64,000 bases of DNA from Endomicrobiales bacterium (lineage in GTDB: Bacteria; Elusimicrobiota; Endomicrobiia; Endomicrobiales; JAFGGC01), in contig JAFGGC010000013.1 of NCBI GenBank assembly GCA_016930715.1, forward strand, positions 135,796 to 199,795, read 5' to 3'. Shown here in pieces: positions 6,239-42,197 of this stretch. Position 1 is the first letter of the stretch. Each line of letters opens with the position of its first letter. The notes under the pieces are model-generated. The model made no database searches and was not told where the DNA came from. It was given only the letters and a program-made list of their open reading frames with translations. The position numbers were made by a program, and so were the translations under genes.

Positions 6239-6321
6239 GATTACACCGATTAATACGGGGATTAAACAGATTAAGGTCTGTCGACGTATCTGTGTAATCG
6301 GTTTAAAAAATCTGTGGAATC
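6239..6321. repeat. Repeat family 1, copy a (2 forward + 2 reverse GATTACACAGATT-type boxes)
   Basis: Forward boxes are gattacaccgatt (6239-6251) and gattaaacagatt (6260-6272). Reverse boxes are atctgtgtaatc (6288-6299) and aatctgtggaatc (6309-6321). The architecture matches the copies at 30042 and 41179. Confidence 0.8.
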
Positions 6322-29025: not shown

Positions 29026-30031
29026 CAGAAGGCTGGCCAGAATCGGGCAATTCGCCGATTCTCTGGGGCTTGAGGCTTATCTGGTAGGCGGGGCCGTACG
29101 GGACCTTCTCTCCGGCAAAAAACTCACCGATCTTGACTTCTCAGTAGAAAAAAATCCGTTGCCGCTGGTTAAAAAAGCCGCTTCCGAATTCGGCGGGAAG
29201 ATCGTTTCCCACGGCCGGTTCGGGACTTTTACTCTTGCGATGAGAGACGGCCGCCATATTGATTTTGCGACAGCCAGGGAAGAGTCCTATCCGCAACCGG
29301 CTGTTTTGCCGACGGTAAAAAAGAGCACGATACGAAAGGACCTGTTCAGGCGGGACTTTACCATAAACGCAATGGCGCTGCGGGTAGGAAAATCCGGCGC
29401 GCGGCGTCTTCTGGATCCCTGCGGGGGAAGAAAGGACCTGGAAAAGAGGATTTTACGTGTTCTTCATCCGCGGAGCTTCCGCGACGATCCCACGAGGATC
29501 TACCGCCTTGCGCGTTTTGCCTCGAGGGGCTACAGGATAGACCCCGTTACCGTTAAATACCTGAAACGTGACAGAAAATTCGCCAGGCTCCTGACAAGAG
29601 AAAGGGTCAGGGAGGAACTGCTTGCGATCCTTTCAGAAAAAAACCCGGCGCCCGCGCTGAGACTCCTGATGAAGTGGAAGATAGCGGACGAGCTTTCGCG
29701 CATCCCGGCAGTTACGGGCAGGCTCGGCCTTCTGCAAAAATGCGGGGGGCTTCCCGAAAGAATAGCCGTTCTCATCAAAAACCTTTCAGCTGCCGGGAGG
29801 CTCGGGTTTCTTGAAGGTTTGAGGCTGTCCAGAAGGCTGAAAAGCGAGGTTCAGGAGCGTCTTGCGCCTGGACTGCCCAGGCCGGTGCTCAACGGCGACG
29901 ATCTCAAACGCATTGGATACAGGCCCGGACCCCGGTTCAAGCTAATGCTGTCCGCGCTTTCAAGGAGAGGATTCAGATCCCGCCGGAAGGCCGTCAAATT
30001 CCTGTTTGACAAATTTCCGCAAAAAAGTTAA
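28997..30031 (+). CDS. cca: CCA-adding enzyme / poly(A) polymerase-family tRNA nucleotidyltransferase (short form)
   Basis: AYLVGGAVRDLLSGKKLTDLDFSV, RDFTINAMA and DPTRIYRLARFASR. ATG at 28997 is chosen over the ORF-track 28976. Confidence 0.7.
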   Translation: MRSSLPVRSDRRLARIGQFADSLGLEAYLVGGAVRDLLSGKKLTDLDFSVEKNPLPLVKKAASEFGGKIVSHGRFGTFTLAMRDGRHIDFATAREESYPQPAVLPTVKKSTIRKDLFRRDFTINAMALRVGKSGARRLLDPCGGRKDLEKRILRVLHPRSFRDDPTRIYRLARFASRGYRIDPVTVKYLKRDRKFARLLTRERVREELLAILSEKNPAPALRLLMKWKIADELSRIPAVTGRLGLLQKCGGLPERIAVLIKNLSAAGRLGFLEGLRLSRRLKSEVQERLAPGLPRPVLNGDDLKRIGYRPGPRFKLMLSALSRRGFRSRRKAVKFLFDKFPQKS

Positions 30032-30041
30032 AATCAACAGA

Positions 30042-30139
30042 GATTACACAGATTTTTACTTCTGATTACACAGATTCAGACAGTAAAGGATTTAATGTTG
30101 ACAGTAATCTGTGTAATCGTTTTAAAAATCAATGTAATC
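30042..30139. repeat. Repeat family 1, copy b (best-preserved copy)
   Basis: gattacacagatt occurs at 30042-30054 and 30064-30076. aatctgtgtaatc occurs at 30106-30118 and aatcaatgtaatc at 30127-30139. The inner pair is a perfect 13-bp inverted repeat. Confidence 0.85.
30098..30126 (+). promoter_or_regulatory. Promoter-like hexamers embedded in repeat copy b
   Basis: TTGACA (30098-30103), a 17-nt spacer that is the inner reverse box, then TTTAAA (30121-30126). The -10 is weak. Confidence 0.3.
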
Positions 30140-30173
30140 AAGGTCTGATGGTTTGTTTCAGACCAAAGAAATT

Positions 30174-31957: not shown

Positions 31958-32023
31958 GGTAAAAGTTGCAGGGTACAAGGTAAATATTAACGGTTTCAAA
32001 GACTTAAACTTTTACCTTTTAAT
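31958..32023. repeat. Repeat family 2, copy b (inverted heptamer arrays)
   Basis: Forward heptamers are GGTAAAA, GTTGCAG, GGTACAA and GGTAAAT (31958-31985). Reverse heptamers are cttaaac, ttttacc and ttttaat (32003-32023). ggtaaaagtt (31958-31967) and aacttttacc (32007-32016) form a perfect 10-bp inverted repeat. Confidence 0.7.
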
Positions 32024-40123: not shown

Positions 40124-41167
40124 ATGAAAAAGATTCTGCTGGCTGCGACATTCACGGTTTTCCTGGCGAATCAGGTTTTCGGAGGAACGGGCGCCGCCGC
40201 TTTTCTGGATGTTGGCGTGGGGGCGAGGGCGCTGGGAATGGGCGGGGCTTTCGTGTCCGTGGCCGACGACCCGTCCACCGTTTACTGGAATCCGGCGGGC
40301 TTGGGAAGGCTCAACAGGTTCAGCTTCACGGCAATGAGCCAGTCGCTCGCGTCTTCTAAATGGGAAACGCTCGAGGATATTACGCCGAGTTACCAGTTTT
40401 TCGCGTTGACTATCCCGGTGAATACTTTCGGCCTGCCGTTCATAGGCAACGAAACCAACACTTTCGGAATCGGGATGATTTCCTGCGGGCTTGACTCGAT
40501 TCCGTACACGTACCTGGGATCTTCCGGTCAGATAGTAAGGGAAACTTTCAAGGATACGGAGAACGCCTATTTCATTTCTTACGGGGTGCCGATCTTTGAC
40601 GAAAGCGCCGAAGGGCTGTATGCCGGGACGACGCTGAAATTCATTACTCAGAAATTTTCAAAGATCGACGGAGCGAGTGCGACCGGTTACGATATGGATT
40701 TTGGGTTCATGTACAATTCAATGAATTTCAACATCGCGATGATGGTGGAGCGCGGTGCCTGCATGAGCTGGGCCAACGGCCGGTCCGACACGGCGCCTAC
40801 GACCGCAAAACTCGGCGTTTCTAATAAATTCTGGTTCAAGCAGTCGTACTCCATACTTGCGGTGGGGGATCTCGTGCAGAGACAGAACAGCCCGCTGACA
40901 CTTAATGCCGGCGCGGAATTCGGCTATGAAAGGGAATCGGGGAACAGAAGGTTGAAATTCGAGGGAATCTTCGCGCGCCTCGGGGTCGAAGGGTACGCGC
41001 TTGAAAACAGATACGGTTACGCGAGCAAGATAAACGAAGATATTAATCTAACGGCCGGTCTCGGATTGAGGCTGGTGACGTTCGGTTACAGCATCGATCT
41101 TGATTACGCGTTCGGCAGCTACAGGCTGGGCGACAAGAACAGGATCTCGCTGAGCCTTTATTTTTAG
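40124..41167 (+). CDS. PorV/PorQ-like (FadL-fold, UPF0164-like) outer-membrane beta-barrel
   Basis: Signal peptide, then AAFLDVGVGARALGMGGAFVSVADDPSTVYWNPAGLGRL. Alternating beta-strand pattern with a terminal aromatic (SLSLYF). Only 3 nt separate it from the upstream gene. Confidence 0.6.
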   Translation: MKKILLAATFTVFLANQVFGGTGAAAFLDVGVGARALGMGGAFVSVADDPSTVYWNPAGLGRLNRFSFTAMSQSLASSKWETLEDITPSYQFFALTIPVNTFGLPFIGNETNTFGIGMISCGLDSIPYTYLGSSGQIVRETFKDTENAYFISYGVPIFDESAEGLYAGTTLKFITQKFSKIDGASATGYDMDFGFMYNSMNFNIAMMVERGACMSWANGRSDTAPTTAKLGVSNKFWFKQSYSILAVGDLVQRQNSPLTLNAGAEFGYERESGNRRLKFEGIFARLGVEGYALENRYGYASKINEDINLTAGLGLRLVTFGYSIDLDYAFGSYRLGDKNRISLSLYF

Positions 41168-41178
41168 GTAAGTATCTT

Positions 41179-41291
41179 GATTACACAGATTTGCTGAGAC
41201 GATTACACAGATAAAAACGAACCGAAAGATGAAAAAAAGTAGGATTATTAGGTTTTAATCTGTGTAATCTATGTATTGAATCTGTGCAATC
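41179..41291. repeat. Repeat family 1, copy c
   Basis: gattacacagatt at 41179-41191 and gattacacagat at 41201-41212. aatctgtgtaatc at 41257-41269 and aatctgtgcaatc at 41279-41291. Confidence 0.85.
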
Positions 41292-42116: not shown

Positions 42117-42197
42117 GGTAAAAGGTAAAAGTTGAAAGGTAGAAGTTAGAAGCAAAAGAAGATTATAATTTTTACCATTTACCTTGTACCTTGTAAC
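42117..42197. repeat. Repeat family 2, copy c (5 forward + 4 reverse heptamers)
   Basis: Forward heptamers are GGTAAAA, GGTAAAA, GTTGAAA, GGTAGAA and GTTAGAA (42117-42151). An 18-nt spacer follows. Reverse heptamers are ttttacc, atttacc, ttgtacc and ttgtaac (42170-42197). Confidence 0.75.

Follow-up and report, generated by a model that had tools for sequence, protein, structure and literature searches.

Phased inverted box clusters in an Endomicrobiales genome are probably gene-less copies of a small GxxExxY-nuclease cassette

We analysed a 64-kb window of an Endomicrobiales genome (the whole 64,000-nucleotide stretch of contig JAFGGC010000013.1, corresponding to C24:135796-199795 of the source genome G000; G, C and L numbers denote genomes, contigs and loci), in which three intergenic regions carry clusters of a 13-bp box, GATTACACAGATT, here called the GATTAC box. 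G000 is a 2.30-Mb assembly of 45 contigs with 51.4% G+C. The clusters belong to a gene-less population whose gene-bearing form is a cassette in which the same arms enclose a gene for a GxxExxY nuclease. Copies of the unit have arisen at new intergenic sites within genomes, and the unit occurs across phyla; it is a repeat that replicates, not an operator specific to this genome. Taken together, the evidence makes it probable that the window clusters are non-autonomous, gene-less copies of this small nuclease cassette and that the boxes are binding sites of the nuclease.

The gene-bearing form is present once in G000, which holds exactly one PF13366 gene (C28:79210-79584, minus strand, E 8.8e-35), on another contig than the window. 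Its protein matches TIGR04256, 'GxxExxY protein', with an E value of 3.2e-38. Of the two arms that bracket the gene, the forward one occupies 79133-79167 and the reverse one 79582-79614, giving a gene-bearing unit of C28:79133-79614, and the gene takes its ATG from the end of the inner box (CAGATG). A single open reading frame (ORF) of ~21.6 kb (C28:57445-79110, minus strand) starts 22 nt downstream of this unit. Within the taxonomic order of G000, the gene stands between arms of GATTAC-type boxes, canonical or closely variant, in G001, G008, G003 and G006, with two boxes in each arm in G001, five in each in G008 and variant GATTAC boxes in G003 and G006. It is likewise found between such arms in metagenome-assembled genomes (MAGs) labelled Deltaproteobacteria (L138, L214, L215, L216, L045), in Planctomycetia (L139 and L070, where the contig end cuts the PF13366 ORF) and in an Omnitrophota MAG (L112), and in several phyla the ATG again lies in the inner box. 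Altogether, 17 of the 18 PF13366 genes examined sit between inverted arrays of direct repeats. The arms can also expand as tandem 22-bp arrays, as in G008, which has two forward and six reverse boxes at the orthologue of window copy b (L005 1325-1482) and five plus five around its gene on C8 (L129).

Deletion intermediates connect this full form to the gene-less form. In L093 and L137 the first 30-43 codons of the ORF are fused to its last 12-30 codons with both arms intact, and further-truncated copies that keep one arm were found at L134-136 and L040.

The gene-less population itself is large. A search of the whole G000 assembly at up to one mismatch recovered 202 boxes and none of a reversed control word, and 198 of the 202 are intergenic, though intergenic DNA makes up 9.9% of the genome. 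These boxes form 57 complete units of two forward and two reverse boxes (2+2), 69-115 bp each, besides partial units; the 2+2 architecture that the initial annotation had described for the window is conserved genome-wide, and its suggestion of a dispersed element resembling repetitive extragenic palindromic (REP) sequences or miniature inverted-repeat transposable elements (MITEs) is supported. Box starts lie 19-23 bp apart, mostly 21-22, and centres span 0-46 nt. Neighbouring boxes up to 100 nt apart are paired forward-reverse (56), forward-forward (36) or reverse-reverse (29), and reverse-forward pairs are absent (0). The box logo is (T)GATTACACnGAT(T/a); spacers within an arm show a weak A/T-rich consensus and are otherwise unconserved.

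The units nearly fill their intergenic gaps and mostly begin a few nucleotides past the upstream stop codon. We considered a general promoter just upstream of the units and rejected it, as the A-rich upstream flanks ('TAAAAC') are the stop codons of the preceding genes. The orientation classes of the neighbouring genes (++ 27, -- 21, -+ 5, +- 4) match background proportions, with four units between convergent genes. By our own ORF-based gene calls, both genes point the same way in 92% of adjacent G000 pairs, and median gaps are 18-23 nt, so that most insertions land inside operon-like runs.

Comparison of individual copies indicated what is being copied. The closest pair of gene-less copies in G000, C17:29236 and C23:67179, is 89% identical over 82 nt, and window copy a is homologous over its full length to C34:256-339 (84% over 86 nt). 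Where G000 copies are homologous, the likeness runs through spacers and centre and breaks off precisely at the outer boxes. Between genomes of the G041 clade there are dozens of matches that begin at the first forward box (F1) or within 2-6 nt of it and mostly end at the last reverse box (R2). The copied unit therefore extends from outer box to outer box. Among the G000 units, no excess of target-site duplications over shuffled partners was seen (k 2-9, offsets 0-12), no inverted-repeat identity continues past the outer boxes, and the two intra-arm spacers of one unit are not complementary (27% identity). Filled and empty forms of one junction were found in the G041 clade: G049 reads TGAgaATG, and in G041 the stop codon is followed by 4 nt, an 86-nt unit, 15 nt containing GGAG, and ATG. 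The same clade carries a short repeat unrelated to GATTAC boxes (L030 1-160), which recurs in many places, with 95-99% identity, in G049 and G054.

In the window, GATTACACAGATT has 12 matches at up to two mismatches against 1.07 expected, and none of 100 shuffles reaches 12. The matches form three clusters, each in the order forward, forward, variable centre, reverse, reverse (reverse boxes below are given as read on the plus strand):

6239..6321, no strand: copy a, 83 bp, complete 2+2 gene-less unit
6239..6251, plus strand: copy a, outer forward box F1, GATTACACCGATT
6260..6272, plus strand: copy a, inner forward box F2, GATTAAACAGATT
6287..6299, minus strand: copy a, inner reverse box R1, TATCTGTGTAATC
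6309..6321, minus strand: copy a, outer reverse box R2, AATCTGTGGAATC
30006..30034, plus strand: sigma-70-type promoter TTGACA-17-TAAAAT, from a promoter scan (11/12 matches); context, outside the element
30042..30139, no strand: copy b, 98 bp, complete 2+2 gene-less unit
30042..30054, plus strand: copy b, box F1, GATTACACAGATT
30064..30076, plus strand: copy b, box F2, GATTACACAGATT
30106..30118, minus strand: copy b, box R1, AATCTGTGTAATC
30127..30139, minus strand: copy b, box R2, AATCAATGTAATC, 2 mismatches
41179..41291, no strand: copy c, 113 bp, complete 2+2 gene-less unit
41179..41191, plus strand: copy c, box F1, GATTACACAGATT
41201..41213, plus strand: copy c, box F2, GATTACACAGATA
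41257..41269, minus strand: copy c, box R1, AATCTGTGTAATC
41279..41291, minus strand: copy c, box R2, AATCTGTGCAATC

All 12 boxes lie essentially where the initial annotation had placed them, as one 2+2 architecture in three intergenic regions, with box starts in each arm 21-22 bp apart. Of the central spacers it gave as 15, 29 and 44 nt, the 29 nt of copy b stands, and copies a and c measure 14 and 43 nt; the value of 15 arose from counting the inner reverse box of copy a from 6288, which drops its mismatched first base (6287). The flanking motifs it noted in copies a and b, gtYgacRgt and cgKtttaaaaa, are both present. Its distance of 10-35 nt from the end of a copy to the start codon is essentially right, as the last box is followed by a start codon after 9 nt in copy a, 34 nt in copy b (ATG 30174; 13 nt if TTG 30153 is used) and 21 nt in copy c. 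Copy a lies between a MoxR-like ATPase gene (stop 6212) and a DUF58-like gene (ATG 6331), and copy c between a gene ending at 41167 and a coiled-coil protein gene (ATG 41313).

An M50-peptidase-like gene carries copy b as an insertion in its transcribed leader. The promoter at 30006-30034 lies inside the 3' end of a CCA-adding-enzyme-like gene, is the only report of the promoter scan at copy b, and predicts that transcription starts at roughly the first nucleotide of copy b. A second candidate promoter, TTGACA-17-TTTAAA, had been proposed to enclose the inner reverse box; the sequence is indeed present at 30098-30126, but it is absent from the promoter-scan output and its promoter role was not upheld. 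At orthologous loci of other families and metagenome relatives the promoter is kept as TTGACAA-N17-TAxAAT, and behind it the leader differs: L143 and L144 have about 12 nt before the ATG and no unit, G000 has the 2+2 unit, G008 the 2+6 array, G004 a unit with variant boxes, and G003, L140 and L142 have unrelated hairpins. The metagenome relatives (best 71% amino acid identity) are too distant for base-exact empty sites. This leader is a hot spot, with different hairpin insertions in different lineages. In G003 the place is taken by a nested hairpin of GAAGATT and AATCTTC words (L003 1415-1490), which looks like a gene-less unit of another word family.

The element had been called genome-specific, which proved wrong. 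We searched one genome per prokaryote species with one arm (two exact boxes 7-10 nt apart) and found the identical two-box arm in more than 118 MAG contigs from many phyla, with labels including Deltaproteobacteria, Omnitrophota, Nitrospirae, Planctomycetia, Elusimicrobia, WOR-3, Stahlbacteria and Atribacterota, among others; one Nanoarchaeia bin also carries it, and several MAGs have matches on 3-5 contigs. A search of viral contigs gave one match only, carrying half-units. The dominant layout at the cross-phylum loci is again forward-forward-reverse-reverse, with start distances near 22, 28 and 21. When the ORFs at 118 of these loci were clustered, no gene stood beside all of them and the recurring domains were generic ones of signalling and ABC type; it was this clustering that revealed the small PF13366 (PDDEXK_3) ORF between the arms at L045 and L112.

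Across lineages of the protein, the box word takes the forms GATTACACNGAT, ACACGGAT, CGCAGAT, GGAGATA and GGCACAAAG. Identity to the G000 protein is 51-66% for proteins with GATTAC boxes, which have NFGNKSCQIKR in common, and 35-44% for those with ACACGGAT or CGCAGAT words, which form one clade (100/98 support). Box labels are clustered on the protein tree, none of 500 label shuffles reaching as low a value, and the box word varies together with the protein subfamily. The GATTAC-box proteins of Planctomycetia, Omnitrophota and Deltaproteobacteria-labelled MAGs group against the species phylogeny, a pattern that fits horizontal transfer, and 'multiple transfers' have been noted for the GxxExxY family (PMC3424549). 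Gene and boxes also co-occur. Within the taxonomic order of G000, 6 of the 8 genomes that have 10 or more boxes carry the gene, versus 1 of the 33 with fewer (Fisher p = 4e-5), the single box-poor carrier being G006, whose gene has variant boxes; among relatives of G041 it is present in 5 of 14 box-rich versus 1 of 27 box-poor genomes (p = 0.013). Both p-values are overstated, as related genomes are not independent. Box number among relatives ranges from 0 to about 500.

The AlphaFold2 model of the cassette protein (pLDDT 94.6, pTM 0.86) has as its nearest solved fold Cas4 SSO0001 (4ic1; TM 0.61, E 1e-4), with the alkaline exonuclease LHK-Exo, lambda exonuclease, AddAB and MGME1 among the further close folds. 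By this modelled fold, the protein is a member of the Cas4/RecB/lambda-exonuclease branch of PD-(D/E)XK nucleases. The residues conserved in GxxExxY proteins are E31 (of GxxExxY), D70, E80-x-K82 and Q95..Y99, and from these residues and the fold the nuclease looks active. A sequence search of the PDB with the protein and a search with the PADLOC defence models each gave no match. The PF13366/TIGR04256 family is listed as 'function unknown' (PMC3424549).

We propose the following mechanism. The full cassette consists of an arm of at least two direct boxes, a gene of ~125 codons for a GxxExxY nuclease (PF13366 PDDEXK_3, TIGR04256) and an inverted arm. The 12-13-bp boxes, two helical turns apart, would be the binding sites of the nuclease, one protein unit per box, so that the two boxes of an arm would lie on one face of the helix. 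The nuclease would pair the inverted arms and cut either at the outer boxes or beside them (T|GATTAC...GTAATC|A), and it would mobilise the 57 complete copies and the partial gene-less copies in trans, as RAYTs (REP-associated tyrosine transposases) are thought to serve REPINs (doublets of inverted REPs). Copies would persist only where insertion is harmless, i.e., at operon junctions, in leaders and at gene ends. Mobilisation by the nuclease is something we infer from the sequence comparisons above, and the arms appear not to be templated from each other. Several observations weigh against this proposal. As there is no target-site duplication, no known transposition chemistry can be assigned, and it would be unusual for a 125-aa nuclease core alone to read a 12-bp asymmetric word. 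The tree does not resolve a single clade of GATTAC-box proteins (2 changes); their monophyly is not rejected (p-AU 0.28). Some box-rich genomes have no detected gene (G004 with 73 boxes, G052 with 254 and G066 with 95), which could reflect gene loss, an incomplete MAG or independence from the gene. Finally, the majority of G000 copies have neither spacer nor centre sequence in common, and the closest pair reaches no more than 89% identity, so that recent activity in G000 is low or absent and something has to keep the boxes, either a requirement of replication or a use by the host.

A use by the host is the substance of one alternative, in which the element has been adopted by the cell, whose use of it keeps the boxes, and replication is no longer the point. 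The boxes might then be sites of a domesticated GxxExxY protein that organises the nucleoid or acts as a global regulator, or the units might serve as intercistronic or leader RNA hairpins, for RNase III-type processing or as mRNA stabilisers, as proposed for REPs and BIMEs (bacterial interspersed mosaic elements). The gene is single-copy per box type, the units lie in transcribed places with copy b beginning at a predicted transcription start, and some copies bear a hairpin with TATAAT and a Shine-Dalgarno sequence beside the downstream gene. Clearly homologous pairs differ much less in their boxes (3/52 versus 6/30, and 3/52 versus 11/33 elsewhere), and a relative-rate test found the boxes slower than the rest of the unit (0.15 versus 0.36), an estimate that pair selection and chance alignments limit. 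Owing to the strand symmetry of the unit, any RNA transcribed across it can form a two-helix hairpin, and those predicted for copies b and c are strong (dG -32 to -35 kcal/mol, z -5.2 and -5.5), but copy a folds no better than shuffled sequence (z -1.3). The initial annotation had offered such an RNA hairpin as a possible selected feature and covariation as the way to recognise it; partner boxes in the G000 units show no compensatory changes, mirrored deviations numbering 7/98 for F1/R2 (chance 5.6) and 5/126 for F2/R1 (chance 10.3), and Rfam at gathering thresholds gave 0 matches over the whole window. The hairpin is best seen as a by-product, of which the host may or may not make use. Against host adoption in either form, presence and absence vary at orthologous sites, box numbers differ widely among relatives, half-units occur in either orientation relative to the downstream gene, and the downstream genes have no visible common theme; we therefore consider it unlikely. 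The other regulatory reading, a transcription-factor operator array controlling the downstream genes, possibly with looping, had been put forward on the two-helical-turn phasing and dyad layout, to which nearness to start codons and the position of copy b at a transcription start could be added. One part of that proposal survives: recognition of each box by a DNA-binding protein fits the phasing, the conserved boxes and the unconserved spacers. Regulation as an operator is very unlikely, because gene orientations around the units match the background and include convergent pairs, the units follow stop codons and generally have no upstream promoter, the copy b site is empty in close relatives that keep the promoter, and the identical word stands beside unrelated genes in unrelated phyla.

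Two further explanations concern the nuclease gene and the origin of the repeats. The gene could be a secondary, homing-type invader of pre-existing palindromic repeats that are spread by another function. Many box-rich genomes are without the gene, gene-bearing copies are a tiny minority (1 in G000), and small PD-(D/E)XK homing endonucleases exist, I-Bth0305I being among the weak fold matches. We nevertheless judge this improbable, since box word and protein clade covary across GATTACACNGAT, CGCAGAT, GGAGATA and GGCACAAAG, the inner box supplies the ATG in several phyla, deletion intermediates span the range from the full to the gene-less form, and no other gene recurs beside the units. An ordinary MITE or REP is scarcely credible, whether as a deletion product of a DDE transposon whose ends have several sites (Tn7, Mu, Tn552 or IS21 type) or as a REP/REPIN served by a Y1 transposase (RAYT). 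The ends of Tn7, Mu and Tn552 have direct transposase-binding repeats about 22 bp apart, with the two ends inverted, and the units resemble them in having phased direct repeats (two sites) in each inverted end and T-G...C-A-like termini; however, those transposons encode rve-type DDE transposases and make 5-7-bp target duplications. We rejected ends of this type, as the units lack duplications and G000 has no rve gene (other DDE families lay outside the scan). G000 does have four Y1_Tnp (PF01797) matches (C28:98303-98632, C30:87536-87862, C14:10066-10392 and C10:9973-10206), which lie in open frames that, at 227-347 aa, exceed IS200 TnpA in length. A RAYT was rejected as well, for none of the four has a GATTAC box within 1.5 kb, the gene that the arms bracket is PF13366 instead, and the boxes, unlike REPs, are not palindromes themselves.

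Among known systems, the REPIN/RAYT system seems the closest analogue of the GxxExxY cassette. Like the cassette, it comprises short non-autonomous doublets of inverted arms around a variable centre (PMC3116915, PMC3337134, PMC5581495), scattered through intergenic DNA at tens to hundreds of copies, and a small cognate nuclease gene that is repeat-flanked and single-copy per repeat type; each gene variant is tied to its own repeat word, and repeat populations can outlive loss of the gene. The RAYT is a Y1 HUH transposase related to IS200 (PMC3337134), whereas the cassette enzyme is of the PD-(D/E)XK type, from the Cas4/RecB/lambda-exonuclease branch. Moreover, a cassette arm has at least two phased direct boxes with free spacers, where a REP is one palindrome; one cassette unit encloses the gene, whose ATG falls within a box; and the cassette word is identical across phyla, implying horizontal transfer, whereas REPIN-RAYT inheritance is mostly vertical.

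Bacterial MITEs such as the Correia elements of Neisseria are, like the units described here, gene-less, ~70-115 bp long, intergenic and bounded by inverted ends, arise as internal-deletion derivatives of a gene-bearing parent, and in some copies supply promoter or Shine-Dalgarno signals to a neighbouring gene. They differ in that our units have no target-site duplication, their parent with the same ends encodes PF13366 and not a DDE transposase, and only the boxes, not the rest of the 'terminal repeat', are conserved. The Coxiella 23S rRNA intervening sequence (IVS), with its S23p protein (PMC4990558), is likewise a selfish element of a few hundred base pairs with inverted repeats and one small ORF, lies in transcribed DNA and can fold as a long stem. 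Its ORF belongs to a different family, however, and it occupies rRNA helices, from which RNase III cuts it out of the RNA. The Cas4, RecB and lambda-exonuclease nucleases resemble the cassette protein in fold and in their E..D..ExK..QxxxY active-site pattern, but the cassette protein is a bare 125-aa core with no Fe-S cluster and no helicase or CRISPR partner, and it is tied to its own flanking repeats.

Other repeats accompany the units. Of the 57 GATTAC units, 7 have a member of a second hairpin family (…aaggcYGTTGAaaa…TCAACRgcctt…) within 45 nt, against 0.4 expected; this family has G000 sites at C1:36848, C28:20393, C23:44159, C36:22123, C30:66102 and C37:32838, and it also flanks units in a Deltaproteobacteria-labelled MAG (L138 1345-1470). 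It may be the 'family 2' of the initial annotation, an accessory module or a preferred target. That 'family 2' (window 42117-42197 and 31958-32023) consists of inverted arrays of GGTAAAA/GTTGAAA-like heptamers, an array followed by its inverse as in the short-word arms of other GxxExxY subfamilies; G000 has just the one PF13366 gene. In place of the second hairpin family, copy b is followed by a GGTCTGA…TCAGACC hairpin (window 30142-30164). Across phyla, two accessory hairpins accompany the arms (L126, L093, L136, L137, L040, L139, L099 and, in G000, C37:162464-162578): AGACATCC…GGATGTCT stands outside the arm on the 5' side of the gene, and aGGTATAATg…cATTATACCaGGAG stands on the 3' side, with a perfect TATAAT and a Shine-Dalgarno sequence facing the next host gene.

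In searchable papers we found no description of the gene-plus-repeat unit, of the 13-mer, or of a link between GxxExxY/PDDEXK_3/PF13366 and flanking repeats. It is tempting to speculate, although we offer this more tentatively than the cassette origin of the window clusters, that the ~480-bp unit is an autonomous mobile element of a new class, and the smallest known, in which a PD-(D/E)XK nuclease reads phased boxes, moves the unit without target duplications and, in many phyla, gives rise to gene-less populations of the REPIN kind that reach ~500 boxes per genome. If so, the orphan GxxExxY family would gain its function. If the nuclease mobilises the units, the REPIN-RAYT lifestyle would have arisen a second time by an unrelated mechanism, perhaps with a new transposition chemistry on a minimal Cas4/RecB-like core. 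For annotation, the boxes mark insertions in leaders and operon junctions that may alter the coupling between genes, and the cassette explains intergenic 'palindromes' that would otherwise be taken for operators, terminators or small RNAs in many uncultured phyla. The orphan PF13366/TIGR04256 family thereby gains a concrete, testable role.

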